Of a stretch of DNA of 64,000 bases, positions 632 to 61,455 are shown piece after piece. Both the position numbers and the translations under genes were made by a program. Source of the stretch: a virus (lineage: Duplodnaviria; Heunggongvirae; Uroviricota; Caudoviricetes); the IMG/VR virus record IMGVR_UViG_3300021387_000091, positions 69,979-133,978 of that record. One strand, given 5' to 3'. Under the pieces are notes generated by a model that made no database searches, was not told the origin of the DNA, and saw only the letters and a list, made by a program, of their open reading frames with translations. How positions within the stretch are numbered: the stretch's first letter is position 1; every line of letters begins with the position of its first letter.

Positions 632-2512
632 CTAGTTTCATAATGATAATTGTTGACAATTTAATTTGTCAATAATTTTATAAACTTCGTGTATATAATA
701 TTGATAATTTATATGGCGTTCTGAAATATCTTTATTATCAAATGTATTGTATAATGTTACAGCAGAATCCGAACACAAATTTGTAATTCTTTCTCTAACA
801 TCACCGTTTAACTTATATTTCATTAATCTTTTTCCATTAGTAGACATATAATATCTATTAATGTGTCTAACTTCTTGACCTCCATATTCTACGTGAAAAT
901 CTTTAGCGACCTTTTGAAATGTGCAAAATTTCAGAATATCATTACAAGATTTAATTGTAATTTCAGGATCAATATCCTCAACAAAATATTTATTTAGAGC
1001 CTCCGGAATTATTAAAGGCGCTAAACCCTTTCCAAGTTGAGGTTCATCAATAAACATTCCTTTCTTTTTTATAAGATTAGGATTCTTAGATTCACTTCAA
1101 CCCTTTTTTACGCCAATATAATCATTAATTGCATATTGATAAAACCGTTCAAATTCCTCACGTTCCAATTCCAATCCGGTGAGTTTTTCTCACCAATCTT
1201 TTACTTCATTTACTTTTGGAATTAAAGATTTATTTATTGTATAACACAATCCATCTGTATTTGATTGAACAATTTTACCACCAGCAAGAGCAATGCTTTC
1301 TGCGTACATTAATAATAGTAATTGACCATTAATTCTAATTCTTAAGACCGCTTTTGGATCATATACTCAAGAGAATTCAGATTGAAGATTTCCGGTTAAA
1401 CCATTAATTGCAAGTTTTAGTGTTTCATTCTTTAATTTATTACCGCTTCTCTTGGCTTCAATTCTTTCATCACGAATGTTTTTATAAATTCTAACAAAAG
1501 CTTCGCCCAAATGTTGCGGGAATATGTTATTCTGAATAATAATTGACGGATATAGCGACGCAACATCGTCGTCAAATATCGCAATATCATCATCAGCTTT
1601 AAATATTTCTGGAACATTAACACTATGCAATCCACCCATTCCAAATGTGTGTTCAACACCATTTAAAAAGAATTTTCTTTCAAAAGAATTATCGTTTGGA
1701 TCGGCGCAATGTTGTTTTAAATCATCAAGAAGTTGTTTTAATTCTGGAGTTTTAAATTCAATGTATGGAAATATAATTTCTCCAAAACACAAATTATCAC
1801 AAGGGCTTCTTAAATCTTTAATTTGATTTCATGTTAATCCTGTTTCTTTAAGATATCTATCTTTAAGAATTTCCATTCCAAGATTAACTCCATCTTTATT
1901 CATTACATCTATACCATATTCTTCTTCAATTGCAATTCTTAAATCAATGTCCTTTTTACATCTAGTTAAGAATTCTTCAGTACTTTCAACATCATTAAGA
2001 TTATATGCGTTTTCTTTATCAATATCTGACTCTGGCAATGGTGCATCAAAATCACCATCATATTCTTCAACATTTTTATAATTCATTGTTACTTGAAGTG
2101 CTTTTAAACTAGGTCTTAGTTTTTTAGACCATTTCATAGCCAATAAATCTAAATCATTATAAAGATTTGCATATTTATATTTACTTCAAGAAGCAGATGT
2201 TGTTGAATTAATAATTAAATCACTAAACTGTTTAAGCTCCATTGTTATTACTCAAACAGGTTTAGTAATTAAGCGTTTATAATTAATTAAAATATAAGAT
2301 ATAATTGGTTTATCATAATGTAAACTATTATAACCTACAAAATATATATCTTTTCATAAAAACAATCTTGCTATTTTCGGCATATCGTTTCTTCGATTAG
2401 ATATTTCGTATGTAGCATGATTACCAGATTCAGTATTTTTAATAGTAACACTAAAATAATTTACAAATACTTCAATATCATATACAAACGCTGGTAAATT
2501 TTTAATCAGCAT
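632..2512 (-). CDS. polB: Family B DNA polymerase, read through 8 in-frame TGA codons
   Basis: ORFs 638-1057, 1367-1792, 1829-2143 plus upstream segment share one frame and are separated only by TGA (2354, 2252, 2186, 1829, 1367, 1190, 1097, 638); YDIEVF (Exo I), FVGYNSLHYD (Exo II), DxxSLYPSII (motif A), NTDG (motif C); ATG 2510-2512, TAG stop 632-634. Confidence 0.8.
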
Positions 2513-6278: not shown

Positions 6279-6980
6279 CTATAAGTCTAAATATAAAACT
6301 GGATACTCAATTTTATAATCTTCATTTAAAACACTAACACAATAAACATCTGTTTTATCGAGAATTTCTTTATTATGATTAGATGAATGAAGATGGCCGT
6401 GAATATTTATTTTTGGAGATTTTTCTAAAATAGCATCTCTTAAAGCAACATTTCCAATATGTTCAGGATTTCTTCCCCATTTAGTCCAATCAAAACACAT
6501 ATCCGATGTACCATATGGCGCATCATGTGTTAATAATATGTCACAATCTTTAGGAATATAAGAATAAAGTTTATTTAAATTTTCTTGGTCTTTCATAAAA
6601 GCCCAATTTCCAAATATCTTACACCACGGTGTACCGTAAATAGTAATGCCGTTAAAATTATATAATGAATCCTCTAAATAAATAGTCCTATTATTTGTTT
6701 TATCTTGAATATATTTTGCTATTTCAAATCGTCCATCTTCAAGTTTTTGCCATCCAACTTCATGATTACCAGCTATCCATAAAACAACACTGTTTTCGTC
6801 TTTATATGGTAAAGAATTGACCCAATCAACAAAAGTTGTAATATACCATGACATTGTATCATGTTGATTCCGCTGATAATTTAAATCAACATTATCTCCA
6901 GCAACTAATAATAAATCAAAAGATTCCTTTATCTCTGGCAATAAACCGTGACTATCCGAAAATGCAGCCAATTTAATCAT
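6279..6980 (-). CDS. calcineurin-like metallophosphoesterase
   Basis: DSHG, GDNVD, GNHE motifs. Confidence 0.75.
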   Translation of the reverse strand: MIKLAAFSDSHGLLPEIKESFDLLLVAGDNVDLNYQRNQHDTMSWYITTFVDWVNSLPYKDENSVVLWIAGNHEVGWQKLEDGRFEIAKYIQDKTNNRTIYLEDSLYNFNGITIYGTPWCKIFGNWAFMKDQENLNKLYSYIPKDCDILLTHDAPYGTSDMCFDWTKWGRNPEHIGNVALRDAILEKSPKINIHGHLHSSNHNKEILDKTDVYCVSVLNEDYKIEYPVLYLDL

Positions 6981-8565
6981 ATTGTTTAAATATATCTTTT
7001 TCTATAACAACACAATTTGTAGAAATAAACATGTTTAAAACACTAATAGCATTTTCAAAAGCAAGTCTATCAGCTTTTGTTGGATTTATAATTCCACTTT
7101 TTAAGAAATCTACATATTTTTCTGAATTAGCATCCCAAGAAATATTATCTTTAGGAAATACATTTTTTCCAATTTCTTTAGGATCAAATCCAGCATTTGT
7201 TACAATTGTATCAAATATAGATGTTAATGCTAAATTTACAATATCAATACCTTGTTGTTCTCCTTCTGATTCTGACTTTGGCATATCTAGAAATGCTTTC
7301 ATAAAAGTTAAGCCACCACCAGGAACAATTCCTTCTTCTAGTGCAGCTTTTGTAGCACAAACAGCATCATCAATACGATCTTTCTTTTCTCGCATTTCTA
7401 ATTCTGATGTTGCTCCAACTTTAATAACACCTATTCCGCCAACTAATCTTGCAATTCGTTCTTTATAATACTTTTGCAAAGTTTCTTCACTATCTTGAAG
7501 TTTAGAAAGAAGTCCTTTTAATTCTAAAACTCTAGCCTTAATTATATCAACAGTACCATTACCATGTAATAGAGTTGTTGTATCTTTTGTAACTACAACT
7601 TTACCACACAAACCTAACATATCTCCTGTTACTTTAGATAACTCAATACCATTATCATAAGTTGCTAATTTAGCTCCAGTTAAAATTGCAATATCTTCTA
7701 ATATACCTTTTCTATAATCTCCAAATGAAGGGGCTTTAACAAGACAACATTTAATATTACCCTGAATATGATTTAATCTCATATTCTGAATAACTTCGTC
7801 GTCATAATCTTGTGCAATAATTAGTAATGGTTTGTTATTTTTTGCCGCATATTCGGCGGCGGGAATAATTTCTCTAGTAAGCTGAACTTTTTGATCTGTA
7901 ACAAGAATTAAACAATTTTCTAAAACAGATTCAGACTTATTTCTATCTGTTATAAACCAATGTGAAACAAATCCTCTTTCAAATTGCATACCGTTTATAA
8001 TATCAATAGTTGTCTGATTGTTAGCTGATTCTTCAACTGTTATAATTCCATCCAATCCAATCTTCTTAAAAGCAGATGCAACTAATTCTCCAATTTCAGA
8101 ATCTCCATTTGCAGAAATAGTAGCAATTTTTGAAACATCAGATTCATTAATAGGAATAGACGATTCATTAATTGTTTTATTAACAAAATCTTCCGCTATT
8201 TTAATTCCTCTTTTCAAATCTGATATATTTTTGATACCAGATTTATATTTAGCGTAAGCCTGTTCAACCATACTAAATGCTAATACAGTTGAAGTGGTTG
8301 TAGCATCACCAACAGATCTAACTGTATTTAATGCTGCTTGCCTTAGTAATGTAGCACCAACATTTTCATATTTATCTTCAAGAAAAATATTCTTTGCAAC
8401 AGTAACTCCATCTTTTGTTACATGAGGAAGTCCGTTATTATAATCATCTAATATTACGCATTGACCTTTTGGACCAAGTGTTGAACCAACAGCTTTTGCT
8501 AATATAGACATACCTTTTAATAAACTTCCTTTTGCAGAACTATCAAACTTTAACTCTTTTGCCAT
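6973..8565 (-). CDS. groL: chaperonin GroEL (Cpn60)
   Basis: 530 aa; MAKELKFD...GPKG...DGVTVAK N-terminus and overall Cpn60 pattern; no TGA. Confidence 0.9.
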   Translation of the reverse strand: MAKELKFDSSAKGSLLKGMSILAKAVGSTLGPKGQCVILDDYNNGLPHVTKDGVTVAKNIFLEDKYENVGATLLRQAALNTVRSVGDATTTSTVLAFSMVEQAYAKYKSGIKNISDLKRGIKIAEDFVNKTINESSIPINESDVSKIATISANGDSEIGELVASAFKKIGLDGIITVEESANNQTTIDIINGMQFERGFVSHWFITDRNKSESVLENCLILVTDQKVQLTREIIPAAEYAAKNNKPLLIIAQDYDDEVIQNMRLNHIQGNIKCCLVKAPSFGDYRKGILEDIAILTGAKLATYDNGIELSKVTGDMLGLCGKVVVTKDTTTLLHGNGTVDIIKARVLELKGLLSKLQDSEETLQKYYKERIARLVGGIGVIKVGATSELEMREKKDRIDDAVCATKAALEEGIVPGGGLTFMKAFLDMPKSESEGEQQGIDIVNLALTSIFDTIVTNAGFDPKEIGKNVFPKDNISWDANSEKYVDFLKSGIINPTKADRLAFENAISVLNMFISTNCVVIEKDIFKQYD

Positions 8566-10137: not shown

Positions 10138-10209
10138 ATAAAATACAAGTTTAAATTAATCAAATCTCTAAAAATTGTGATTCTATAGAATCAACATCTA
10201 AATTATTAG

Positions 10210-10302
10210 CAGGGGCTGCAGGACTCGAACCCACATATCCGGTTTTGGAGACCGGCGTTGGCGGTTTTGAAGACCGCTGTGTTACCATTACACCAAACCC
10301 CT
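10210..10302 (-). tRNA. suppressor tRNA, anticodon UCA (reads UGA); tRNA-Trp-derived with tandem duplicated anticodon arm
   Basis: 93 nt: AGGGGTT TG GTGT AATGGTA ACAC A GCGGT-CTTCAAA-ACCGC CAACG CCGGT-CTCCAAA-ACCGG ATAT GTGGG-TTCGAGT-CCTGC AGCCCCT G; second hairpin equals E. coli tRNA-Trp anticodon arm (CCA). Confidence 0.8.
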
Positions 10303-10372
10303 ATAAAATGATACTTATTTAAAAATGATCCACAGTCATTCGCGTAAACCATTCCGCCAATTCGCCAAAATG

Positions 10373-10400
10373 TCGGCAAATGTGGGACTCGAACCCACAA
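10373..10400 (-). pseudogene. tRNA 3' fragment (T-arm plus acceptor strand)
   Basis: GTGGGTTCGAGTCCCACATTTGCC has no matching 5' half; near-copy of the suppressor tRNA T-arm. Confidence 0.4.
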
Positions 10401-10434
10401 TTTATTTTAATTTTGTAAGTATCATAAGATTGTT

Positions 10435-10770
10435 TTAATTTATTAATTTACGACGATACGCAATAGTTGTAAATGCTTCATATTCATTTACACTAGGTAT
10501 TATATCTGTATCACTCCAAATCATCATTTCAGAATAAAGTTCATATCCAGCTGTTACTCCAACAAATCCATCTTCTAACATATAAACGTTAGTTGCAACA
10601 GAAAACCATCTATAGCTATGGATGTTTTGGCAATTAGAAACACATTTAATTTCTTCCCAATCATCTGGATACTCTGTAGAAAAAGCATCTTCAAATTCTG
10701 ACAAAGAATTAATGGAATAAAGAGTTAATAAATTCTTGAACTTTTCAATGAATTGATTAATTGATATCAT
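10435..10770 (-). CDS. hypothetical protein
   Basis: ORF track; TAA stop. Confidence 0.55.
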   Translation of the reverse strand: MISINQFIEKFKNLLTLYSINSLSEFEDAFSTEYPDDWEEIKCVSNCQNIHSYRWFSVATNVYMLEDGFVGVTAGYELYSEMMIWSDTDIIPSVNEYEAFTTIAYRRKLIN

Positions 10771-11890
10771 AACGTATTTTTCCTATAAATTCGTTTAAAA
10801 CTTTAGCATTACAATAACTCATTGTAGAACGTATTGCTGCAACAAATTGAGAAGTCCATTCAGAAAGTGTATATTCAATCGGAATCCAATATTCTTTACC
10901 TTCAGAATGTTTTATTTCAGTTTTACCCATTTCTTTTTGGGCACGCTCTGTTGACATTCCATAATACATTCTTCCAGGTTTAAATACATAATCCTTTATT
11001 TCCACAATTCTTGCTAAACGATTTTCACTAGCAGGTGTAAATATACTATTTATGTTTTTAACAGCCTTTTCAATTATTTCTCCAGCAGCTTCTTGTGATT
11101 GAGCAAATATTTTACCACACATTACATAATCTGCACCAATAGCTAAAGCCACAATTATGTCTCTTATAGAATTACAACCGCCATCATATACAATATATGG
11201 TACAGACCTATACTTTCCTAATGGATAAGAATCATACGATTTAGCAACATATTCTTGTCTATATCTTGTTTCTCTTAACATATACAAAGCATTACGTCCA
11301 ATACCAGTTAAATCGTTTGTTGCACAGCCATTACCAGAACCAATCATTATTCGTACATAATCAATACCGGCTTTAGCATATTCATCATATGCTAATGGCT
11401 CCGCAATATTTCCAGCCATAAGAATTAGTTTGTTATCAAATTTATGTTTTGCAAATTTACAAAGTTCAAGTAATTTTTTCATATGTCCATTTGCAATATC
11501 AATACAAATAAAAGTTTCAGATGTTAATGTATCTGTATTAATAGCAAAACATTCAAATTCTTCTAAACCCATTGCAATCCAAACCTGTTCAAATGCAAGT
11601 TTTATTCTAATATCATATGGAACAGTTCTTGGTATTATTGGAGTAATTTTATTTTTACTAAACTCCAAATAATTTTTATCGTTAACAACACATGACATTG
11701 GTGCAGTAAAAAGAGGTAAATGTGCGGAATCTAAATTCCAATCAAGTTTCTCTTTGGACCAAATAGCATTATAATACGGAGAGCATTCAGATCTATGTTC
11801 TATATTAGTTGTTATAGATGGAATTAATTGTATTTCATCAAAATTAGTCAAATACTTCTTCATTTTTATAAATTTTTGTAAAATCATCAA
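10757..11890 (-). CDS. IMPDH/GMP reductase-family protein (GuaC-like, no CBS domain)
   Basis: GIDYVRIMIGSGNGC and DGGCNSIRDIIVALAIGADYVMCG resemble IMPDH/GuaC catalytic-Cys loop and phosphate-binding motif. Confidence 0.7.
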   Translation of the reverse strand: MMILQKFIKMKKYLTNFDEIQLIPSITTNIEHRSECSPYYNAIWSKEKLDWNLDSAHLPLFTAPMSCVVNDKNYLEFSKNKITPIIPRTVPYDIRIKLAFEQVWIAMGLEEFECFAINTDTLTSETFICIDIANGHMKKLLELCKFAKHKFDNKLILMAGNIAEPLAYDEYAKAGIDYVRIMIGSGNGCATNDLTGIGRNALYMLRETRYRQEYVAKSYDSYPLGKYRSVPYIVYDGGCNSIRDIIVALAIGADYVMCGKIFAQSQEAAGEIIEKAVKNINSIFTPASENRLARIVEIKDYVFKPGRMYYGMSTERAQKEMGKTEIKHSEGKEYWIPIEYTLSEWTSQFVAAIRSTMSYCNAKVLNEFIGKIRYDIN

Positions 11891-12411: not shown

Positions 12412-13032
12412 AGCGTCTATTCTACAAAATAAATAGTAGAATTAATATCTGTAATAAATTATCGATTAGACTTCCAATAATAGTACAAATCTAATCTAAC
12501 CAATCTCAATTTTTCAAGACCATTCTTTTAATGGTTTATCTCCGTTTGCATAATGACAATCTTTAAATTCCATTCCAGATACAATTCCTAATCCAAATAA
12601 AACTGTAAACATAAATCTCAAAGGAATTACTAAAAGAAAATGTTTATATCGAATCAATTGATACTATTTTTTAATCACTCATTTTTTTTATTTATTACAT
12701 TGTAAGTATTCAAATAATTAATCCGAATAATCTCAAAAATCAATTTTCTTTTCTCGATGATTCTTTTTTTCTGGATGTTTTGTTTCTTTTTGTTGTTTTT
12801 TCTTTTTACTACGAACTTTTTCAAAATTAGTCTCGTCTGACATATGTTCTAGTTCGTAAAATGAAACTTTAGGCATTAAAAATTAAAATTAATAAAACGT
12901 AAAAAGACACTGAAAGTCACTTTTACTTACAGGCCACTAATTAACGTGTTAGAACGGAATCAATTTCGTAGACTCACCGGTACGTCCAGCGTACTTTTAA
13001 AATACATGATTTTAGCAGTTAATAAAAGTTAA

Positions 13033-13049
13033 TATTGTAAGTGTCTTAA
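13033..13049 (+). repeat. motif AATATTGTAAGTGTC (family M1)
   Basis: Recurs at 22063-22078, 26265-26281; variant at 26041-26057. Confidence 0.5.
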
Positions 13050-13280
13050 TCTATTATAATTGTTATAAATCTTTATTCACGTGTGTAGATATTTTTTACC
13101 GATATAAAATATCAAACGTTAAAATACATCCATAAAGGGCAAAAAGTCACGAAGCATACTTGTAGTCATTAGATTCTCTAACTCCAATAATTCATTATCC
13201 ACTTAGTTGGAAGCTCTCGGTGGGAATATAAGTTGTTGAATAGAATCTTATAATCTATACACGATTTTAATTTATAACAG

Positions 13281-13359: not shown

Positions 13360-13604
13360 AAAATCACCTTTTATACTAACCCCAGAGGTGTAACTGTGCC
13401 AACCTACGATTTGGAGGAATAGTATGCTTCTATGAGAGGCCTTTCCCATCTTCGTTCCCTGCGCGCTTAGGGCTCATTAAGTAGTTTGTTTGAAGATTTA
13501 TGGAAAAGCTACAATTACACGCTTGTAGCACACGTAGAGCTTACGTTCTCTCTATAACGATAGTAGTATATAGGATTACGATTCTTCCGTCGAAGACCAG
13601 TGAG

Positions 13605-13777
13605 TAGCGGGAGCAGGATTCGAACCTGCGACCTTCAGCTTAGACACTACGTTTGGACTCGAACCAAAATCCCGAGACTTAGGCTACGTGTACCTTACCA
13701 TTGGTCGACGTAGTGTGGTTCGTTTCAGTGAACCATGCTGTATTGAGGCTGACAAGCTACCACTGCTCTACCCCGCT
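13605..13777 (-). tRNA. class I tRNA (Arg UCU/CCU-like) split by ~100-nt intervening sequence in the anticodon loop
   Basis: 5' half AGCGGGG TA GAGC AGTGGTA GCTT G TCAGC (13777-13748) and 3' half GCTGA AGGTC GCAGG-TTCGAAT-CCTGC TCCCGCT A (13639-13605) pair as acceptor and anticodon stems; insert carries its own T-arm TTTGG-TTCGAGT-CCAAA inside an 8-bp helix. Confidence 0.5.
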
Positions 13778-13784
13778 ATTTTAA

Positions 13785-13991
13785 CTAAAGTTTATATTTC
13801 TTATGAAGTAACTTTCCACACTCTTCACATTGGAGAATATAATTTATTTTTCTACCTATTGGATATTTTTCACCATAATTACCCCATATTTGGGTTTCCT
13901 GTTCTTTAATAATTTTCCATTTATGTTTATGGAAAATGAATCGAATAAAATTTTTTAATTTGTTTAAAATATCTCTCATAATAAATAGCAT
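13785..13991 (-). CDS. small Cys-containing protein between tRNAs
   Basis: ORF track 68 aa, CEECGK motif; lies between two tRNA genes. Confidence 0.3.
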   Translation of the reverse strand: MLFIMRDILNKLKNFIRFIFHKHKWKIIKEQETQIWGNYGEKYPIGRKINYILQCEECGKLLHKKYKL

Positions 13992-14724: not shown

Positions 14725-15141
14725 TTATAATAAAGTTAAATGTCCAGTTATTTTATCTATTTCTTCTGATATGTATGGTCCAATACAAAGACACGTGTTT
14801 GTTGGTTCTCCATGAAATTCAGTTAGTCCTGAATCTGTTATAAGTTTAACAGGAAGAAAAGCATTTTTTGCTTTCTTATAAATATCAAGGAGTTCTTCCT
14901 CTGAATTTACACCAACACAAATCTTTGTAAATTTACCATTTAGCCAATCATCTAATACAGATTTTTCATTAAAAGAAACACTATATCTATATGATTTTAT
15001 ATCGGAATTATCTTCTTTAATTTGTTCTTTGTTGAATAATAAAAGTAACGCACCAAGTGAAGCGTGTGCTCCTTGCGCAATCATTTTTCCTTTCCTCATC
15101 CCGAGGTCTTTACGCATTACTATTACTTGTTTTGTGTTCAT
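14725..15141 (-). CDS. peptidyl-tRNA hydrolase, PTH2 family
   Basis: GKMIAQGAHAS and DSGLTEF...T.T.L.IGP motifs. Confidence 0.65.
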   Translation of the reverse strand: MNTKQVIVMRKDLGMRKGKMIAQGAHASLGALLLLFNKEQIKEDNSDIKSYRYSVSFNEKSVLDDWLNGKFTKICVGVNSEEELLDIYKKAKNAFLPVKLITDSGLTEFHGEPTNTCLCIGPYISEEIDKITGHLTLL

Positions 15142-15736
15142 TTCTCCAATTGACAATTTGTTGGTTTATCTTATCATTTAAATCTTTCCAAGAAATAGGA
15201 GTAAAATTATTATTATCTACTCCTACATCATATTGTGTTGGATAAAGATATTGAAGTCTTCCAACATCTTCTGATGAACTTTTTGGCCCACTATGACAGT
15301 GCCCAAATGGAGCAAATGCAAGATTATTATCAGAATACAAACCAGGATCACCGTGAGCAAAACACAAAAAAGGAAAATGATTTAAATAAACACGCCTACC
15401 ATCAATAGTAATTTGCATTTGATATGTAACATAATCAAATAATTGATCTATACCAGCGGTTCTGTTTTTCGCGTCATGATTACCCAATATAAGTATTATA
15501 TGACCATTTAACTGATTTCTAATTTCCTTCCATTTAGGAAATCCTCCAAAACAGAAATCTCCAAGATGAAATACAGTATCTTCTGGCCCTACAACAGAAT
15601 TCCAATTATTAATTAAAATTTTATCTTGCTCTTCAACAGAAGAAAATGGACGGTTACAAAACCTAATTATGGCTTCATGACAGAAATGAGAATCGGATGT
15701 AAAAAATAATCCGTCTCCAGTAAATTTAGTCACCAT
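15110..15736 (-). CDS. metallophosphoesterase
   Basis: TSDSHF, HLGDF, GNHD motifs. Confidence 0.7.
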   Translation of the reverse strand: MVTKFTGDGLFFTSDSHFCHEAIIRFCNRPFSSVEEQDKILINNWNSVVGPEDTVFHLGDFCFGGFPKWKEIRNQLNGHIILILGNHDAKNRTAGIDQLFDYVTYQMQITIDGRRVYLNHFPFLCFAHGDPGLYSDNNLAFAPFGHCHSGPKSSSEDVGRLQYLYPTQYDVGVDNNNFTPISWKDLNDKINQQIVNWRNEHKTSNSNA

Positions 15737-16340
15737 TTAATATAGGATTAGAATTATAAATTTGCATCATCTTTTCTAAAGTAAGATTCTCTATAAGTTC
15801 TGGAAAGTTTTCTAATTGACGCATAAGACCATATCCTAAAACAGGAGACTCTGATTCATTATTAAATAAACAATCTGTAAGCTTATGAATTAAAGAGAAA
15901 TGATTAAATGCCCAGACAAACATATCAATCTTGTTTAACGATATCCATTGAACATCATCTATTTCATTTGGTTCACAATAATTGTTGTTTAAAATAATAT
16001 CAATATAATGTGGTTTATAATTCCAGTAATTTATAGTAACATTTTGTTTATTACTTAAAGGATTATCGTCTATACGCCACATTTTTAAATCAAATGGATT
16101 AACGTATAAACCAGATTCTTCGTGTATTTCTCTAGAGCAAGCACCTACTAAGGTTTCGTTATAATCCAAATATCCACATGGACAACACCACTTACCTACT
16201 TCATCTGGACAACCAGATCCTCTTTTTACAGCCAAAATAGACAAATTATCAGGGCTTCCAGTTAAAACAAAACCACAAACGGCAATAGATCTGCTTATCC
16301 AATATTCCTTATTGCCTAATTTTACAGGAAAATTATTCAT
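15726..16340 (-). CDS. NUDIX hydrolase
   Basis: Nudix box GACSREIHEESGL. Confidence 0.75.
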   Translation of the reverse strand: MNNFPVKLGNKEYWISRSIAVCGFVLTGSPDNLSILAVKRGSGCPDEVGKWCCPCGYLDYNETLVGACSREIHEESGLYVNPFDLKMWRIDDNPLSNKQNVTINYWNYKPHYIDIILNNNYCEPNEIDDVQWISLNKIDMFVWAFNHFSLIHKLTDCLFNNESESPVLGYGLMRQLENFPELIENLTLEKMMQIYNSNPILNGD

Positions 16341-16962
16341 TGTATTTAAAATATAATAATGTTGGATTATCTTTATGTATGTCTATTTCAGGATATTCCT
16401 GACTAAATTTTTGACAATTAAACGGAGATGTTATAATATGAACACCATGTAATGTAGGTACTCTAAATTTTATTTTAGATTTATCGATATGCGGTTCAAG
16501 TGTATCAATAAACACCTCTAATAATTTTAAGCCTCCTTTATTAATGGCCACATGTTCTCGTTCATTCCAGTTATCGTAGTCAATATCCACAACCCAATTT
16601 TTATAAGGTTCGTCAGCATATTTTCCAACTACAGACGGAATTAAATTAGGAAAATGGAGATAATTATCGTCAATTGCCATTTTAGCAGCATCTGCAAGCA
16701 TATTTAACATACATTTTTTATATGATCTTCTATTAAGGAGAATATATACTCTTGCACCTGTACAATCGGATAGTCTTTTTACTTCAGATTCAATGGCATC
16801 ATAGTATTCCAAAGAATAAACAAAATAATATTTAACCATTCTATTATTTGCAGGAAAAGAAGCATCATCTTTCTTTCTCTGCATTAATTCAATGAAATAA
16901 AATTTATCTTTATCTGAAAAATCCAATTTTTCTCTTATTAATTGCCAATTATCTACTATCAT
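16333..16962 (-). CDS. hypothetical protein
   Basis: ORF track. Confidence 0.5.
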   Translation of the reverse strand: MIVDNWQLIREKLDFSDKDKFYFIELMQRKKDDASFPANNRMVKYYFVYSLEYYDAIESEVKRLSDCTGARVYILLNRRSYKKCMLNMLADAAKMAIDDNYLHFPNLIPSVVGKYADEPYKNWVVDIDYDNWNEREHVAINKGGLKLLEVFIDTLEPHIDKSKIKFRVPTLHGVHIITSPFNCQKFSQEYPEIDIHKDNPTLLYFKYNE

Positions 16963-16964
16963 AA

Positions 16965-17396
16965 TTATTTTAATGTATTTAATCTAGATTTGTCAATAGG
17001 CAAACTAGTGTTTTCAGAAATAAATTCATCAAATTTATATACAACTTGTGCAGAAATAATAGGCATTATAGAATTATCTGAAATTAAATCTGTACACAAT
17101 AATATTATTGGTATATTATGAGCATATGCAAATCCTATTTCCCAAGCCGTTCCAGAATCAGAATAATGTTTATCATAAACAGCAATTATTCTATCTGCTT
17201 TTACTAAAGCATCAACGTCCATTTTAAATACAGCATTTGCCCAGTCATAATTACTTATGTTTTCTCCATCTTTTATAAAATGATCCATTGGAAAGAAATA
17301 CTCATGTCCTGATATATTAAGCAAGTATGACTTTAATTTATTCATTCGTTTCCTTTCTGTTTCGTTAAAAAATGGACCTGCTATATAAACTTTCAT
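16965..17396 (-). CDS. nucleoside 2-deoxyribosyltransferase / DNPH1-like protein
   Basis: IAGPFF...E N-terminal motif and DSGTAWEIGFA. Confidence 0.6.
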   Translation of the reverse strand: MKVYIAGPFFNETERKRMNKLKSYLLNISGHEYFFPMDHFIKDGENISNYDWANAVFKMDVDALVKADRIIAVYDKHYSDSGTAWEIGFAYAHNIPIILLCTDLISDNSIMPIISAQVVYKFDEFISENTSLPIDKSRLNTLK

Positions 17397-17402
17397 AATG
17401 CA

Positions 17403-17906
17403 TTATCTATTTAATATATTTTTAGCTAAAATACAATCTTCATCAGATAATCCACGATAAGAATTTATTTGAACAAAATGTGGTTTTTGTTCTTCTGTAA
17501 AGTCAATTCTATCATCAATAATGACATAATTTTCAACCTCTGGATGCCACTCTAGCCACATTTGGATTTCTTCTCCTCTTGTGAAATGATAACAAGATCC
17601 ATAAGAACCAAATATAGTAATTGGTGTTTTATCAATTATGTATTTTAATCCAGCTCTTTCTAATCTTCTTTGCCAACTGCTATCAATTCTCCAATCAGAA
17701 GATATTACAATCTTTGCATCAGTTTCTTGACACAATCTATTAATTCTTTCTATACAAAGTGGATCTACATCTTCCTCTCCGTTTAAGTTTCCTGGATTCC
17801 TATCATCTATATACCATAAAGTATAATTTAAAACCCCATCCACATCAAGGAAGATAATCTTATTATTTTTCATCGTCAAATAATTCATCAATTGCATTAG
17901 GAACAT
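17403..17906 (-). CDS. HAD-superfamily phosphatase
   Basis: Motif I IIFLDVDGVLN. Confidence 0.6.
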   Translation of the reverse strand: MFLMQLMNYLTMKNNKIIFLDVDGVLNYTLWYIDDRNPGNLNGEEDVDPLCIERINRLCQETDAKIVISSDWRIDSSWQRRLERAGLKYIIDKTPITIFGSYGSCYHFTRGEEIQMWLEWHPEVENYVIIDDRIDFTEEQKPHFVQINSYRGLSDEDCILAKNILNR

Positions 17907-18385: not shown

Positions 18386-19402
18386 TTATGGTAATGTGGT
18401 CAACCAGTTTTCAAACTCGAAAGCTTTAATAGGAATATTAAGTGTAGAAACTTTATTAAGTAATTCCTGATTTAATTTATATCCATGACTAAATACAATA
18501 GTACGATCAACATTGTAAGAATAGATAGAATCAATTGTTATAGAATGTTTTAATAACTCTATATCAAATTCAAACGCTCTAAAACTTTTCTGAAAATCGT
18601 TCCATGGATTATTTTCATCATCGATATTTAAAATAGGTTTTCCACTTAATAATGGGCCATTACCATGTCTTGTAATATACGGTCTACAAACATAATTTAC
18701 TGTAATATCATCATTTCTATTAAGTTTTGATATTATTTCAATTGCATTTTTAGATGTTGTATTACTTGGTGTACACCAAGGCATAACACCATGTATTTGA
18801 TCAAGTAATATACCTTGAGATCCCTCAAATATAACATTCTGAAAATTATTTAAATAATCTAAATGATAAATTTGAAATTTATTAGCCATTAAATGAACCT
18901 CTTCAATCCAATCATTTAAATTATTCATTGGTGTTTTAGAATCCAAATGATAATAATTTTCAGCAATACTATAAACTTTCTCTCTTAATACATGAATGTT
19001 TTGTGCATCTACAATTCGTACAGAATATCCATTTTTAATCCTATCCAATGTAGATTTAAACCCAGTTCCTACCGTACCATGTTTTCTGTTATTTTCATTA
19101 TTCCATTGACTAATAACATCAAATGGTGTAACTAATTCACAGAACGGAGAGAAAATAATTTTAGGAAGAATTCCAAGTTGCTTTAACTCAATTGCTTCAA
19201 GAAATAATGTATGTAAATCGCATATACAATACTCAGACCAATAAGTAGGAACATTTTTTAATGTGCCACTTCCAAAATTTCTAAAACAATGTTGTAAATT
19301 ATTATGTTTTACATTATGTCCAACTTGATTTGCACCAGAAAACCTTACAACAATACTATTTTCATCACATAAATTATTAACACATTGTCCCTTTGCTTCC
19401 AA
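18386..19402 (-). CDS. adenylosuccinate synthetase (PurA)-family protein with degenerate P-loop; PurZ-like candidate
   Basis: GHNVKHN (cf. GGHNAGHT), GTVGTGFKST (cf. GTTGRGIGPA), FEGSQGILLDQIHGVMPWCTPSNTT (cf. [25 protein letters not shown]); GDEGKGK replaced by LEAKGQC; TTG start. Confidence 0.7.
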   Translation of the reverse strand: MEAKGQCVNNLCDENSIVVRFSGANQVGHNVKHNNLQHCFRNFGSGTLKNVPTYWSEYCICDLHTLFLEAIELKQLGILPKIIFSPFCELVTPFDVISQWNNENNRKHGTVGTGFKSTLDRIKNGYSVRIVDAQNIHVLREKVYSIAENYYHLDSKTPMNNLNDWIEEVHLMANKFQIYHLDYLNNFQNVIFEGSQGILLDQIHGVMPWCTPSNTTSKNAIEIISKLNRNDDITVNYVCRPYITRHGNGPLLSGKPILNIDDENNPWNDFQKSFRAFEFDIELLKHSITIDSIYSYNVDRTIVFSHGYKLNQELLNKVSTLNIPIKAFEFENWLTTLP

Positions 19403-19655
19403 AATTGTTATCCTATAGACTTTTTATTCTATAGTTCTTATACTTCTTTTTTGTATAAGTTCAGCATATATTTTCATCTACTTATTTTAGTTAAGATGGC
19501 GGATACTCGTGGAAGGATTATATTTATTCACCTTCTATGCGTTACAATGTCAAATAGCCTTTCGAAATCTATTTGCTTATCTCGGTATTAACATCACAGT
19601 CTTCACCGATTTTACCCGCTTCGATATATGATTTCTCATATAAAGGACGAAATTC

Positions 19656-20582
19656 TAAATAACGATTGAATTTTCTTTCAAGATATATATTAGAATCTTC
19701 ATAAAGATATTTTACACAATTTCAAGCTTTTCTATCTGTTGCAATTAATACATGTGTTACAGTATTTCCATTTTCTGGATGAAGTAAACGTATATGTTGA
19801 TATCCATTATTAAAATATTCAGCACATTTATTAAGAAAATCTTTTGTTCCAATAATACTCATTTCTATAGCAGAATGATCTGCGTTGGAATAAGTAATAC
19901 ATCCATCTCCATCAAAGTACCCTCTAATAAAATGTCTTATTAAAGCTGGATCTTTAAATATATTTTCATTTGGAAATTTAATAGTTAACGATTTTCTTGG
20001 AGTACAACCATAAGAATTTAATACTTCAACCATATGTTTATTATCAAAAGACATTCTGCAAAGATCTCCTGTTGGTAAACTCTGATACCTCATTTTGTAA
20101 GTATATCCAAGAAAATCCATAAATTTCTGCAAATGTGCTTTATCTTTAATACTAAGATTTACTGTAATTTTTGGTCTAGTAGAATCAATTCCTCCATCTG
20201 CATACAAAAATCCAAGTCAATAAGCTTTTTCTTCTGTATCAATAGAATCAAAAATATTATAATTTATATTGTTAATTCTATCTTTTCTAATTACTTGAAT
20301 GTTTGTTTGTTTTAATCATCTAGCAAGTGTTGCAACACCAACATTTAAAATAGATGATATTTCTTTAAGAGTTTTTCCCTGATTCTTATAAAGATCAATC
20401 ACTGTGTTTATATCTAAACTAATATTTCTTCTTTTTATTTCTACATTATTTAAACGTAAGTAATTCCCAATTGTTTGAGGACTTACTTTTAACTCTGTAG
20501 AAATATCTTTAATTGTTTTTCCAGACTTATAGATTTCTATAACGTTTGCTTTTTGTAAAAATTCAATCATTCGTTTTTGCAT
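19656..20582 (-). CDS. LAGLIDADG homing endonuclease with N-terminal HTH domains (3 in-frame TGA)
   Basis: ORFs 20316-20582 and 19722-20207 share a frame and join through TGA at 20316 and 20217; motifs Y(W)LGFLYADGG and FIRGYFDGDGC; TAG stop at 19656. Confidence 0.65.
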
Positions 20583-21977: not shown

Positions 21978-22049
21978 CTATAAATATTGGAATCGAACCA
22001 ATGTATTAACTACCCAAAAGTTATGTCCAAACCACTAGACGAATTTATA
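21978..22049 (-). tRNA. tRNA-Pro(TGG) second copy with all-A/T acceptor stem
   Basis: TATAAAT TC GTCT...GGAC A TAACT-TTTGGGT-AGTTA ATAC ATTGG-TTCGATT-CCAAT ATTTATA G. Confidence 0.55.
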
Positions 22050-22078: not shown

Positions 22079-22239
22079 TTTGAGGCTCCTCCGGATCCCG
22101 AGACCGGTACTAGGGGTTACAAATCCCTTATTTTACCTGTTAAACTAAAGAGCCGTTAATGATACTTATTTAAACATATAAAGCCATTAATTTTTTTTGT
22201 TTTATAAAGTATTATAAGTATCATAAAATATTATAAAAG

Positions 22240-23406: not shown

Positions 23407-23469
23407 AATATTATAAACTATGTTAACTTTATAAAAAATTATTTTATTTTATAAGTATCATAACTATTT

Positions 23470-24147
23470 TTATAGTCCAAATTTTTTTCTATATTTTCTT
23501 ATTGTTGCTTCAGAAACATTATATTTTTGTGCGATTCATAAATTGGATCTACCTTGCGCAATATATTGTTTTATATTTTCAACTTCACTATCTCAATCTA
23601 CAATTTTTCGATGTTTTGAAGCACAAGATAAACATAAACCAGAATTTGTTTTAGTTTCTCTTCCACACTCTGAACAATAATATTTTATCTTTTCCGTTTT
23701 ATTCGCATTACCGCAATAATTTTCTGTTTGCGAATGACAATTTGGACATAGCATTTGTAAATTACTTAATTCATTATTTGTTTCGTCTCCATCTATATGA
23801 TGTAGCTGACAAATAATAGGTTTATTTAATCATTCTGTTAATCCACAGCATTCACACTTATTTTGTTTTAATCCAGCATTGATTAATTTTTCTTTAAGTT
23901 TGGAAGATTTTATACAACTTCCATTAATAAGATATTCTTCAACTGATTTACATCTGCTTTTTCCTTTATCTTTAGACACAAATGTAAAATGAGATGTGTC
24001 TAGCCCATATTCTTTTATTTTATTTTTAAGGGTGTCTGAATTTCTACCTCTAACAGGAATTTCAAGTTCACGTAATGTATCTGCATAACAGAAATTATTT
24101 GCCACTGCTTTTTGTATGCGTTCTAAAGATCAATCATATTTTTTCAT
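23470..24147 (-). CDS. HNH homing endonuclease with C-terminal HTH (4 in-frame TGA)
   Basis: ORF 23830-24105 continues through TGA; CECCG...ICQLHHIDGDETNN...LCPNCHS HNH motif; ATG 24145-24147, TAA 23470-23472. Confidence 0.6.
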
Positions 24148-24226
24148 AATTAAAAATTTATTTGTTAAACATTTTATTTTGTAGTACAAAGATACAAAAT
24201 AATTTTGTGCTATCCAAATAAATTTG

Positions 24227-24522
24227 TTGAAATGCCGGGATTCGAACCCAGATTGCAAGAGCCACTTACTACTATAACTTTCGTTACCGTAAAATACGTT
24301 TGTAGTCTGGAGTTCCTCTTAACCATAACAAATCTTGTTTTAGGTTCGCTCTATAAACTCTCTACACACTGTCTTTAAACATTGGCTCGGGATTGCCATC
24401 ACCTTTACGTGTTAAGGGTTCCCCGAATTAGGAGCGTTCTACTTCTATTCTTTCAAATAGAGCATTCTGGTAACCAATAATGGTCTGGTAAATCTTGTGT
24501 CCTACCATTGGACGACATTTCA
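24227..24522 (-). tRNA. tRNA (most parsimoniously Gln UUG) interrupted by a group I intron in the anticodon loop
   Basis: 5' exon TGAAATG TC GTCC-AATGGTA-GGAC A CAAGA TTT (24522-24490); 3' exon TGGC TCTTG CAAT CTGGG-TTCGAAT-CCCGG CATTTCA A (24264-24227); U1:A72. Confidence 0.65.
24265..24489 (-). other. group I intron (~225 nt) within tRNA anticodon loop
   Basis: P-like AATTCGGGGAA, Q-like AATCCCGAGCC, R-like CCAGACTACA, S-like AAGTTATAGT elements in canonical order; 5' exon ends in U, intron ends in G. Confidence 0.6.
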
Positions 24523-26040: not shown

Positions 26041-26179
26041 TTGTAAGAGACATATTATAACGAAACCTACTATTTTGAAAATTCTAAATTTCTGAGAAAT
26101 TCCGGAATGATACATCAGAAATGTATTTAAAAATAACAGGGAATAGTAGGAATAAATTGTTCAATAAAAGACACTTTAG

Positions 26180-26330
26180 TATTTTTGCTAAACCACTTAG
26201 CGACTTTTCCTAATATTGGCAGAAAAGACGAGATTCGAACTCGCGTAACAAAATATTTTATAATATTGTAAGTGTCTTATTAAAAGTCTATGATACTTAA
26301 TTACGTGCTCTATCCGCTGAGCTATTTGTA
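26180..26330 (-). ncRNA. tRNA-like module with intact D-arm and T-arm but no anticodon arm (Y-RNA/YrlA-like candidate)
   Basis: GCTC-AGCGGATA-GAGC D-arm at 26321-26306 and GCGAG-TTCGAAT-CTCGT...CTGCCA at 26245-26210; 5' and 3' acceptor strands do not pair; M1/M2 motifs in the spacer. Confidence 0.3.
26265..26305 (+). repeat. adjacent inverted motif copies ATTGTAAGTGTC ... GATACTTAA
   Basis: M1 and inverted M2/M3 copies 15 nt apart inside the tRNA-like module. Confidence 0.45.
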
Positions 26331-26339
26331 AACAATACA

Positions 26340-26400
26340 CAAAACAGGATTCGAACCTGTGACACCGGCATTAAAAGTGCTAAATTTGAGATTATAAGTA
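26340..26400 (-). ncRNA. second tRNA-like fragment (T-arm plus acceptor strand)
   Basis: ACAGG-TTCGAAT-CCTGT TTTGTGT with weak CTTTTAA hairpin; no pairing 5' acceptor. Confidence 0.25.
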
Positions 26401-26408
26401 TCATAAAT

Positions 26409-26482: not shown

Positions 26483-28309
26483 TTAAATTACATACTTTCT
26501 AACAAAATCATAACGATTACTTCTATAGATAGACATGAGTGGAGTATAGACATCAAAAATATCAATATCTTTAAAATTAACAAGCATTTGCTCAATTAAT
26601 TCAATTTTACCAGGAATATACATTACCTGATCAATATCTGCAAAATGGTTAATATTATAGTTATTGAAATTTCCAATTTCTATAATTACAATATATGGAA
26701 TAAATCCAAGATACTGTTCACACTTATGTTGAAGCTCGAGAATAGATGATTTAGCATCATAGCTATTATTCAAATCGCCATCAGAGCAGCAAATCCATAC
26801 AGGATATTCTCGTAAAGCATCTAATGTGTCTGGTTCTGATTTTGCAATTTCTTTTAGTCTTTCAGCAATAGAAGAAATATAAGTTCCACCACCTTTAAAT
26901 GTTGCATTTAAGAATTCAGAAATTCGTTTATAATTTTCATAAAAACTCTTTTCTGGAATAATAAATGGCTCTGGAACAATACTAACAACATTCTGTCTAT
27001 GCCAAAAACTATTTACCACTTTTGAACCTTTACAATCAATTGCAGACAAAAATCTTGCCTGATTTGCAAACATTCCAATAAGATTTCTTCCAGTATCATC
27101 AGGATTCTTATAGAGAAGAACAGATGCAAGAAATGCTGCAAAATTATATGGTGCACCCTGCATTGATCCAGATTCATCTATGATGGTTAAGAAATTAAAT
27201 GGAAGATTTACTTTGTTTTCTACAAAAGATTCTAACTTTAATTTATCCGGATTTCCAGAAAGAATCTCTTTATATAAATCTTCAAAAGTTGATGCACCAG
27301 TTGTAACTTTAGCTTCTTTCTTTACTTTTTCAAGACGAATCCTATCCTCTATAGAAGCAGTTCCTTGACGAACTTTTTCCTGAAGAACACGTTGTTCCTG
27401 CTGAGCATTTTCCTTAAACTTTTCCCAATCAAGATACCACTGTTTTAAATTTGGCCATTTAAGAATGGTTTTTGCATCATCCTTATATGAATAGAAAATC
27501 CTATTTTTAACACGATATCTTGCTTGCGCTGGAAGTTTGTTTATCCAATTGGTAAACTGCAATTTATCAAATTCTGATATTTTTCCAGTTGAAAATAGAA
27601 CAGACTCAAGATTGGAATTATACTGTCTTCTCCAAGAACGATATCCTTTAAAATTAGCAAATTTACCATTAAAAACATAAGTCCAACCCATCTTAACAGA
27701 AATATCTTTCAAGAACTGAGCTTTTTCAAGCATTACTCGATAGGTGTCTGGCAACATTTGCTTATGTCCACTTCTTTTTCCAAGTCTAGGTAAAGTTAAG
27801 AATTTAGCAACAAGCATCTTCTTAAATGGATTGTTTCCATTAATAATAGACACTACGTAATCCTCTAAATCCTCTCTATACTTAGGAATAGAAAGCATAT
27901 TATAAACATTTATTACATCTCGAGTTTTAGCTCTTGTTTGAACCCTACTTCTAAAAAGGTTATCGAAACAAGTATATTCATCAAACAAACCTGCCCACAA
28001 GAACTTTTTAAATTGCTCATAATCATTAGCAATTATCCAGTTCATTATAATGAAAAACTCATTTCTTTTAGCTTGTCCTCCAGAATCCACCTTATTTCCT
28101 TTAAAGATATTATGTTCACGATTTGTAATATCTCCAATAGAAAATAAAAGAGAGTAAAACATCTCTCTTTTTACTTTATCATCTTTTACCTCATTATAAG
28201 CAGAAGTTAAAAGACTATTTGTAATAGACTGACCCTGAAAAATAGAAAGACAATTTTTTAATCCATAAAAAGGATTTTCATTCGTTTTATTAAATTCTAC
28301 CTTTACCAT
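26483..28309 (-). CDS. large protein with C-terminal vWA domain (possible TROVE/Ro60-like architecture)
   Basis: 608 aa; MIDAS LTIIDESGSM at ~aa 378, then GGGT and CSDGD motifs; ~375-aa N-terminal domain of unknown fold. Confidence 0.55.
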   Translation of the reverse strand: MVKVEFNKTNENPFYGLKNCLSIFQGQSITNSLLTSAYNEVKDDKVKREMFYSLLFSIGDITNREHNIFKGNKVDSGGQAKRNEFFIIMNWIIANDYEQFKKFLWAGLFDEYTCFDNLFRSRVQTRAKTRDVINVYNMLSIPKYREDLEDYVVSIINGNNPFKKMLVAKFLTLPRLGKRSGHKQMLPDTYRVMLEKAQFLKDISVKMGWTYVFNGKFANFKGYRSWRRQYNSNLESVLFSTGKISEFDKLQFTNWINKLPAQARYRVKNRIFYSYKDDAKTILKWPNLKQWYLDWEKFKENAQQEQRVLQEKVRQGTASIEDRIRLEKVKKEAKVTTGASTFEDLYKEILSGNPDKLKLESFVENKVNLPFNFLTIIDESGSMQGAPYNFAAFLASVLLYKNPDDTGRNLIGMFANQARFLSAIDCKGSKVVNSFWHRQNVVSIVPEPFIIPEKSFYENYKRISEFLNATFKGGGTYISSIAERLKEIAKSEPDTLDALREYPVWICCSDGDLNNSYDAKSSILELQHKCEQYLGFIPYIVIIEIGNFNNYNINHFADIDQVMYIPGKIELIEQMLVNFKDIDIFDVYTPLMSIYRSNRYDFVRKYVI

Positions 28310-61453: not shown

Positions 61454-61455
61454 TT

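Follow-up and report, generated by a model that had tools for sequence, protein, structure and literature searches.

A 101-nt Insert with a tRNA-like Module between Anticodon Nucleotides 35 and 36 of a Predicted Phage tRNA-Met Gene

Introduction

To our knowledge, the tRNA introns of bacteria and their phages are self-splicing only, belonging to group I or group II, and splicing of tRNAs by proteins counts as a trait of Archaea and Eukarya. Group I introns interrupt the anticodon loops of cyanobacterial tRNA-Leu and tRNA-fMet genes. Introns of this group normally comprise about 200 nucleotides (nt) or more, follow a 5' exon that ends in U (forming the U.G pair of P1) and end in G. Among the protein-spliced tRNA introns of Archaea and Eukarya, 'transposed' bulge-helix-bulge (BHB) introns occupy non-canonical positions. 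In this study, a split tRNA gene is described that is located at positions 13777-13605 (minus strand) of a 64,000-nt stretch of virus DNA (Duplodnaviria; Heunggongvirae; Uroviricota; Caudoviricetes), namely positions 69,979 to 133,978 of the IMG/VR record IMGVR_UViG_3300021387_000091. This entire stretch is referred to as the window in the following. The anticodon loop of the gene holds a 101-nt insert, which itself contains a tRNA-like module.

Further described systems share individual traits with this locus. Collaborative homing is represented by the cyanophage psbA intron together with F-CphI and by the seg and mob genes of T-even phages. T4-type Pnkp/Rnl1 and RtcB/Ro/Y-RNA modules repair RNA damage caused by host nucleases, and we know of no tRNA-repair system that serves the programmed removal of an insert. 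Likewise, mascRNA of MALAT1 is a tRNA-like processing signal, but no module of the t-element, YrlA or mascRNA type is known to us that resides within the anticodon of another tRNA or is coupled to the rejoining of its flanks. In vivo, the tRNA-like domain of Mycobacterium smegmatis YrlA, featuring a 7-base-pair (bp) acceptor, is a substrate of RNase P and receives a CCA tail (PMC4201824), and plant mitochondrial t-elements direct cuts by RNase P and RNase Z in mRNAs (PMC1920247). Moreover, tRNA introns have been reported from Patescibacteria (PMC13011429).

Results

An insert-free allele of the split gene was found in a sheep-rumen metagenome contig (L007), which was retrieved by looking up the 68-amino-acid (aa) open reading frame (ORF) ending 8 nt upstream of the tRNA gene. 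Identity between this contig and the window amounts to 100% in the 457 nt upstream and to 99.2% in the 642 nt downstream, and the contig lacks exactly 101 nt relative to the window. Its anticodon loop reads CTCATAA (empty-site sequence GTCAGCCTCATAAGCTGAAGGTCGTAGG), and ARAGORN called a tRNA-Met(cat) of 73 nt. Since this loop is reproduced only by a split between CTCA and TAA, the insert corresponds to positions 13643-13743 (minus strand) and lies between anticodon nucleotides 35 and 36; with this split, the anticodon is CAT (Met) and not TCT or CCT (Arg). The junctions fixed by the empty site, i.e., CTCA followed by the first insert base A and the last insert base C followed by TAA, are exact: neither target-site duplication nor terminal inverted repeats, microhomology or a deletion were observed.

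The 5' exon (13744-13777, minus strand), delimited by the sequence itself, by ARAGORN with introns allowed and by the L007 junction, comprises the acceptor 5' strand AGCGGGG, TA, the D arm GAGC-AGTGGTA-GCTT, a G, the anticodon-stem 5' strand TCAGC and loop nucleotides 32-35 (CTCA). The 3' exon (13605-13642, minus strand), defined by its sequence and L007, continues with loop nucleotides 36-38 (TAA), the anticodon-stem 3' strand GCTGA, the 5-nt variable loop AGGTC, the T arm GCAGG-TTCGAAT-CCTGC, the acceptor 3' strand TCCCGCT and the discriminator A; CCA is not encoded at its end. The acceptor strands form seven pairs including one G.U. After removal of the insert, a canonical cloverleaf with the anticodon CAU results, and the exons of the occupied alleles join to the L007 sequence.

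Default tRNA annotation overlooks the split gene, as neither ARAGORN with default settings nor the Rfam tRNA model detected it; annotation that allows for introns assigns a wrong label. When introns were allowed, ARAGORN predicted, at c[13604,13777], a tRNA of 73 nt interrupted by an intron of 101 nt, and designated it tRNA-Arg(tct), i.e., tRNA-Arg(UCU), by choosing the register CT/.../TCTAA. The joined gene (...GTCAGCCTCATAAGCTGA...) matches 162 phage records, and every annotated one among them is a tRNA-Met. Furthermore, the 18-mer GGTAGCTTGTCAGCCTCA occurs in five phage tRNAs of IMG/VR, all five of which possess the anticodon CAT. The outer gene has U at position 20 instead of the A20 of the Arg identity set. 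Based on these sequence comparisons, the outer gene is assigned to the tRNA-Met(CAU) family of elongator type, an assignment that embraces elongator tRNA-Met and lysidine-modified tRNA-Ile2 alike. A tRNA-Arg identity is rejected on the basis of the CTCATAA loop of the empty site and the similarity to the tRNA-Met family; an alternative alignment combining the intron called by ARAGORN with two anticodon substitutions is less parsimonious.

A sequence-only reading of this DNA had described one tRNA gene with canonical acceptor, D arm, anticodon stem, 5-nt variable loop and T arm, split in the anticodon loop by an insert of about 100 nt. All of these arms were recovered at 13777-13605, and the insert length is now known exactly. 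The alternative envisaged there, namely two independent fragments, disagrees with the same split gene being present in four further contigs (L006, L018, L019 and L022) and with the intact gene in the near-identical L007, which also supplies the insert-free allele suggested as a check. In contrast, the Arg-like anticodon, proposed together with the registers CU/UCUAA and CUC/CUAA, has to be abandoned, since the empty site only fits the split between CTCA and TAA and the gene body belongs to the tRNA-Met family.

The insert (ATACAGC...GTAGTGTC) is ORF-less and consists of a 28-nt spacer (ATACAGCAT-GGTTC-ACTGAAAC-GAACC-A), a 72-nt tRNA-like module and one final C. Within the spacer, a 5-bp hairpin, GGTTC-ACTGAAAC-GAACC, is predicted at 13717-13734 (minus strand). 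The tRNA-like module at 13644-13716 (minus strand) was called a tRNA by ARAGORN at 95% of the default threshold (-ps95). Its acceptor helix ACACTACG/CGTAGTGT comprises 8 bp (or 7 bp), with CACTACG/CGTAGTG contributing seven pairs and an A-U pair extending the helix to eight. The T arm TTTGG-TTCGAGT-CCAAA was located at 13652-13668 (minus strand) by a T-arm scan and by its sequence. Moreover, the sequence features of a tRNA elbow are present, i.e., U8, a D arm with A14 and G18G19, U54U55C56 and A58, and the variable loop is short (3-4 nt). The anticodon stem forms three of five pairs below a loop reading CCTAAGT, with C at position 33; this stem is the only defective part of the module. As acceptor, T arm and D/T elbow are kept, the parts read by RNase P, RNase Z and the CCA-adding enzyme are intact, but the decoding part is not.

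The inner T arm and its 8-bp closing helix had already been recognized in the sequence-only reading; they turned out to belong to a whole cloverleaf. Structure prediction for the insert, also proposed there, yielded the spacer hairpin; the folding energy proved unremarkable for the insert (z = -1.9) and for the whole precursor (z = -2.7).

Occupied alleles were detected in several independent assemblies of sheep-rumen samples. The contigs L006 (JGI 3300002641) and L018 (Logan SRR873601) carry the insert in a form identical to the window. Contig L019 (ENA ERZ27256871), a genome 98% identical over 2.4 kilobases (kb), harbours an insert of 103 nt, in which a C to T exchange turns a C-G pair of the hairpin into U.G and an additional CA dinucleotide is located in the spacer; in its outer acceptor, pair 7-66 is A-U instead of G.U. 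Furthermore, a metagenome scan for both acceptor strands of the module yielded L022 (JGI Ga0310694), featuring a 103-nt insert at the same tRNA-Met site within flanks that are unalignable to the window. Since several independent assemblies agree, the split gene is not an assembly artefact.

Searches for further copies covered the window as well as public collections. Exact-pattern and exon-anchored gapped scans of IMG/VR returned chance matches only, the species-representative bacterial and archaeal genomes of GTDB gave no real match to the insert, and BLAST of the insert against cultured phages revealed only a weak resemblance to tRNA-Gln. The window holds no second copy, and low-stringency BLAST of the window and the fetched loci gave T loops only; a donor copy was found neither in the window nor in the collections searched. 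A covariance model of the insert (R1), applied to 248 kb of related loci, detected no diverged homologues. Its best non-self matches were ordinary or suppressor tRNAs of relatives (25-39 bits), and the scores for the relatives' suppressor tRNAs were only slightly above those for other tRNAs. All real matches to the insert in public collections share one tRNA-Met site; it is a rare element that has so far been specific to this site. Relatives sharing the IMPDH-like protein at about 50% identity are syntenic but contain no tRNA-Met at that place, and the synteny differs in relatives sharing PTH2 at 75-80% identity. The contigs of the closest intermediate relatives end before the tRNA gene.

Three distinct insert sequences, originating from the window, L019 and L022, were compared. 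The module is identical at 72 of 72 positions in all of them, and all 3-4 changes are located in the spacer of 29-31 nt, where the sole change in the hairpin stem keeps pairing. According to our own estimate, such clustering has a probability of about 1-2% under a uniform distribution. Between L022 and the window, the exons differ at 5 of 72 positions, and the inserts differ by two substitutions and one 2-nt indel; the L022 exons are about equally distant from the uninterrupted tRNA-Met of an unrelated phage (L012, 6 of 72 positions). These counts suggest that the insert is better conserved than the exons. The stem changes within the exons all keep pairs, with 1-72 changing from A-U to U-A, 7-66 being G.U, A-U or G-C, and 10-25 changing from G.U to G-C. 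For the double cloverleaf of 42 pairs, 125 of 125 countable cells represent standard pairs.

A three-way alignment of the window, L019 and L007 revealed insert-linked single-nucleotide polymorphisms (SNPs) at 13455-13628. At four positions (13628, 13508, 13488 and 13455), all within 190 nt 3' of the insertion site, the window agrees with L019 and L007 differs. Outside these four SNPs, L007 equals the window, and beyond 13363 the window again agrees with L007, with L019 differing. This pattern points to a conversion tract of 290-410 nt, which includes the insert and whose upstream extension is shorter than 28 nt. All three occupied alleles have the proximal T-stem marker, C at 13628, which is absent from the empty alleles L007 and L012. 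The insert may either have entered different tRNA-Met alleles together with a short stretch of the 3' exon or have stayed nearly unchanged amid diverging surroundings; both possibilities argue against a decaying pseudogene.

Interpretation of the Insert

Our favoured reading, held tentatively and at somewhat less than even confidence, is that the insert represents a small (101-103 nt), ORF-less, horizontally mobile intervening sequence in tRNA-Met genes of large rumen phages that is spliced out of the transcript. Features of a mobile intervening sequence are observed at this locus, namely occupied and empty alleles in near-identical genomes (L007 versus the window, L018 and L019), exact junctions, co-converted flanking markers and the same insert in a diverged allele (L022). 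Moreover, the module has the shape of tRNA-like processing elements, i.e., an acceptor of 7-8 bp stacked on a 5-bp T stem and T and D loops capable of forming an elbow. At the DNA level, the insert would spread by homing-like gene conversion into empty tRNA-Met genes, driven by a free-standing endonuclease or by plain recombination across the conserved exons. At the RNA level, the module would probably function as a tRNA-shaped handle for processing, cut by RNase P on its 5' side (13716/13715) and by RNase Z one nt past the 8-bp acceptor helix. If this helix forms, the first unpaired nt is the last insert base, so that the RNase Z cut would fall on the junction between insert and 3' exon (13643/13642) and leave a 5'-phosphate on U36. 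A spacer tail of 27-29 nt with a 3'-OH would then have to be removed from the 5' half by a further, hypothetical nuclease, and the nicked anticodon loop could be resealed by a likewise hypothetical ATP-dependent RNA ligase of the tRNA-repair type, thereby restoring CAU. That all of these traits combine in a previously unknown class of phage tRNA introns is possible, although not probable; such a 'tRNA-within-a-tRNA' would possess its own cloverleaf, be excised by RNase P and RNase Z, be resealed by a repair ligase and home into the anticodon of tRNA-Met.

Several points weigh against this reading. Splicing is purely inferred. In the 64-kb window, no RNA ligase was found, the only trace being an 18-bit PHROG match on a metallophosphoesterase. 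For the 5' junction, no precise activity can be named, since RNase P would leave the tail of 27-29 nt, and no endonuclease gene adjoins the tRNA-Met gene. Since phages can often do without their tRNA genes, an insertion that is not spliced could persist as well. In addition, the contrast between insert and exon divergence is not formally significant, and in a shuffle control 110 of 500 replicates reached the observed covariation values, which are thus not significant either; because only three distinct insert sequences are at hand, covariation statistics are weak, and statistical covariation is not claimed. Finally, the double cloverleaf amounts to -46 to -48 kcal/mol as opposed to -59.5 kcal/mol for the computed minimum-energy fold; a tRNA cloverleaf that differs from the computed optimum is common.

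An unspliced selfish or neutral insertion that inactivates a dispensable tRNA-Met is possible, although not probable. RNase P and RNase Z would in this case release a 72-nt RNA, which might be the selected product serving as decoy or Y-RNA-like partner, along with two useless halves. The lack of an identified ligase and 5'-junction nuclease in the window is in line with this alternative, as are the invariance of the module rather than of the junctions, the presence of other tRNA-like non-coding RNAs (YrlA-like units) in the genome and the cleavage of tRNA-like domains by RNase P in vivo (PMC4201824). An empty-site strain exists as well, meaning that the intact gene is not required or that the insert is not fixed. 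However, the stem substitutions in the exons of occupied alleles all keep the outer cloverleaf, with both partners of pair 1-72 having changed in a compensatory manner, the site is precise to the single nucleotide in two tRNA-Met alleles as is typical of target-sparing elements, and no copies were found elsewhere in the window and the collections searched. It is improbable that the insert is a functionless, one-off product of illegitimate recombination (a spacer plus a degenerate tRNA) that spread passively among co-infecting rumen phages via the conserved exons. The module does resemble an ordinary tRNA with a broken anticodon stem, model R1 barely prefers the relatives' suppressor tRNAs over other tRNAs, the divergence between window and L019 inside the insert is close to the genomic 2%, and the element is rare, with no match in IMG/VR or GTDB and one further metagenome contig. 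Yet a donor is missing from the window and from every collection searched, the spacer bears 3-4 changes compared to none in the 72-nt module, the insert recurs across several samples and in a diverged allele whose flanks are unalignable, and its junctions are exact, showing neither deletion nor duplication. Of the options named in the sequence-only reading, the unusual small intron comes closest to the results, and the disrupted pseudogene or dead remnant is the least supported, given that the insert is better conserved than the exons and recurs in a second, diverged tRNA-Met allele.

On its sequence features, the insert appears to fall outside every intron and transposon class tested, and the corresponding explanations carry little weight. 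That the insert is a ribozyme of a new small class, splicing or cleaving itself, is very unlikely, even though anticodon loops are the location of bacterial group I introns, the alternative ARAGORN register (U/C...G/U) would mimic the U/omega-G rule of group I, and the tRNA-Gln gene of the same genome contains a group-I-like intron. Searches of Rfam with gathering thresholds and at E <= 10 on 13500-13900 retrieved no family for the insert, neither a ribozyme nor an intron. A group I intron was rejected, since the insert of 101-103 nt has no P3-P9 core, gives no match to RF00028 at E <= 10 and is bounded by A and C instead of U and G; the earlier verdict 'too short for a group I intron' therefore still applies. 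Group II introns (>400 nt, six domains including domain V) are likewise incompatible with 101 nt and no Rfam match. Moreover, visual inspection revealed no internal guide sequence that could pair with the end of either exon, and the conserved part is a plain tRNA fold. Still less likely is a BHB intron of the archaeal type that a splicing endonuclease would cut, in which case the virus would be archaeal or encode the enzyme. The small size, the protein-dependent logic, the non-canonical position known in Archaea and the archaeal-type PTH2 gene of the phage are compatible with it, but a 4-bp central helix between 3-nt bulges was absent in either register around 35/36 in a hand check, and no EndA-like domain was present among the approximately 40 window ORFs scanned (64 kb of genome). 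The chaperonin, furthermore, is a bacterial GroEL (555 bits versus 58 bits for thermosome), so that the host is most likely a bacterium. The least likely of these explanations is a miniature element of the IS200/IS605 type (PATE) moved as single-stranded DNA by TnpA acting in trans. Its seamless insertion with neither target duplication nor terminal inverted repeats, and a hairpin about 9 nt from each insert end, would fit. Against it, the hairpins GGTTC..GAACC and TTTGG..CCAAA show no sequence relationship and the latter is a canonical T arm, only one copy per genome region and no other site were found in any collection searched, the tetranucleotide rule linking guide and cleavage site did not hold in a check by hand, and no transposase was seen.

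If the insert is spliced as favoured here, it would open a third way of splicing tRNAs, one that relies on RNase P, RNase Z and an RNA ligase. If it is unspliced, it would constitute a new site-specific selfish element that hijacks tRNA processing to produce a small tRNA-like RNA. Either outcome bears on the origin of tRNA introns and split tRNAs and on the RNA-repair genes of large phages.

Genomic Context

The window originates from a large phage with a G+C content of about 30% and more than 20 tRNA genes. Genes of tRNA and RNA metabolism cluster around the tRNA array at 14725-17906 (minus strand), and additional ones are located at 6279-6980 and 29101-29943. They encode the archaeal-type peptidyl-tRNA hydrolase PTH2 (14725-15156, minus strand), three calcineurin-like metallophosphoesterases, a NUDIX protein, a nucleoside 2-deoxyribosyltransferase and a HAD domain of the 'Swiss Army Knife RNA repair' family (PF18143, E 7e-32; 17403-17906, minus strand). 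A free-standing LAGLIDADG endonuclease ORF with a helix-turn-helix domain is located at 19569-20582 (minus strand) and comprises 337 aa when TGA is read as sense. An HNH-like ORF with the motif CQLHHIDGDETNN...CPNCH follows at 23470-24150 (minus strand). This neighbourhood of RNA-repair and endonuclease genes is suggestive with respect to the tRNA-Met gene. The 68-aa ORF adjoining the tRNA-Met gene gave no family match and is also present in the empty-site contig L007. The 244-nt spacer downstream of tRNA-Met was considered as a trans-acting RNA and rejected, being unstructured (z = +0.39) and not matching any Rfam family.

A second interrupted tRNA gene, tRNA-Gln(UUG) at 24226-24522 (minus strand), contains a 225-nt insert in its anticodon loop, with U as the last base of the 5' exon and G as that of the insert. 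This insert matches the Rfam group I model RF00028 weakly over the full length (17 bits, E 0.05). Together with the HNH-like ORF directly downstream, it shows the layout expected for collaborative homing.

Reading TGA as sense raises the number of frames with at least 150 codons from 40 to 61, and new frames of 626, 460 and 583 codons emerge. Examples are located at 632-2512 (minus strand), 19569-20582 (minus strand), where the LAGLIDADG gene is completed, and 60071-63207 (plus strand). These frames indicate a recoding of TGA in part of the genome, which fits the UCA-anticodon tRNA at 10209-10302 (minus strand). The latter was called 'SeC(tca)' by ARAGORN; its anticodon arm is GCGGT-CTTCAAA-ACCGC (UCA), and a second hairpin, CCGGT-CTCCAAA-ACCGG (CCA), occupies the position of the variable arm. 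Relatives have shorter UCA tRNAs at the matching place, and the tRNA is probably a UGA suppressor. Contig L022, in its region 1-2201 (about 43% G+C), has no ORF of more than 90 aa in translation table 11 and no Rfam match; a frame of 268 codons appears only with TGA as sense. About 110 nt upstream of its tRNA-Met resemble L002:8910-9018 (78% identity).

Permuted-looking units were observed at 26278-26404, 26150-26290 and 10308-10425 (minus strand). Their order is T arm, acceptor 3' strand, a short linker (encoding CCA in one unit), acceptor 5' strand, D arm and an anticodon-like arm. One unit matches the YrlA model RF02553 (35 bits, E 4e-6). The unit behind the IMPDH-like gene is kept in relatives with about 50% protein identity, exhibiting covarying acceptor pairs and a variable 'anticodon' loop; counterparts are located at L001:11667, L002:11620 and L019:3978. 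Based on their sequences, the units are probably phage Y RNAs of the YrlA type, which explains them better than circularly permuted tRNA genes as a sign of archaeal-type ligation. Immediately upstream of two YrlA-like units, where bacteria place Ro60 (rsr), an ORF of 608 aa is encoded (26483-28309, minus strand). It matched no sequence in Pfam, NCBIfam, PHROG or PDB and could be a very divergent Ro60-like partner.

The 10-mer ATGATACTTA occurs in seven exact copies, six of which form three inverted pairs (ATGATACTTA...TAAGTATCAT) at 10308-10317/10416-10425, 22159-22168/22215-22224 and 26290-26299/26395-26404; the remaining copy is located at 23452-23461. Two of the pairs enclose YrlA-like units, and one encloses 46 AT-rich nt, representing an 'empty' unit. 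Directly after the latter, a sequence at 22083-22154 (minus strand) was recognized as tRNA-like by Rfam (38.5 bits), but not by ARAGORN. Moreover, three places are flanked by the motif GACACTTACAATATTA together with a complementary AAGTGTC further downstream, namely tRNA-Pro (21978-22049), the unit at 26150-26290 and a region of about 130 nt near 12910-13050. Both motifs may function as promoters, as processing stems or in both ways. Auxiliary metabolic and chaperone genes, encoding the bacterial-type GroEL, a GMP-reductase/IMPDH-like protein, a truncated-looking adenylosuccinate synthetase and an F420-0:gamma-glutamyl ligase-like protein, are located at 6973-8565, 10757-11890, 18386-19402 and 48774-49826 (minus strand).

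Comparison with Known Systems

With the protein-spliced tRNA introns of Archaea and Eukarya, the insert as proposed here would share its shortness, the lack of catalytic RNA, excision by proteins, sealing by a ligase and a position that is not bound to 37/38. It differs from them in having no bulge-helix-bulge and in residing in a phage with bacterial GroEL; moreover, the putative recognition element is a cloverleaf inside the insert and not the exon-intron junction. T4-type and RtcB repair systems resemble the proposal regarding the resealing of a nicked anticodon loop, and the window encodes an RNA-repair-type HAD domain, metallophosphoesterases and YrlA-like RNAs. Unlike in these systems, repair would be put to programmed use for insert removal, and no ligase gene was seen in the window.

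Collaborative homing is paralleled by an ORF-less insert in a conserved target, a short asymmetric conversion tract and free-standing LAGLIDADG and HNH genes in the genome. In contrast to collaborative homing, the endonuclease genes do not adjoin tRNA-Met. The processing signals of t-elements, YrlA and mascRNA share with the module the stack of acceptor and T arm, the D/T elbow, a dispensable anticodon arm and the embedding in a longer transcript. These signals mark the ends of mRNAs or non-coding RNAs, whereas the module lies inside the anticodon of a tRNA, where its cleavage is inferred.

Group I tRNA introns resemble the insert in their location in a bacterial-type anticodon loop, in being ORF-less, in the existence of occupied and empty alleles, in lateral spread and in the co-conversion of exon markers. 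Unlike these introns of about 200 nt or more, the insert comprises only 101-103 nt without a P3-P9 core, is bounded by A and C, and has a cloverleaf as its conserved fold.

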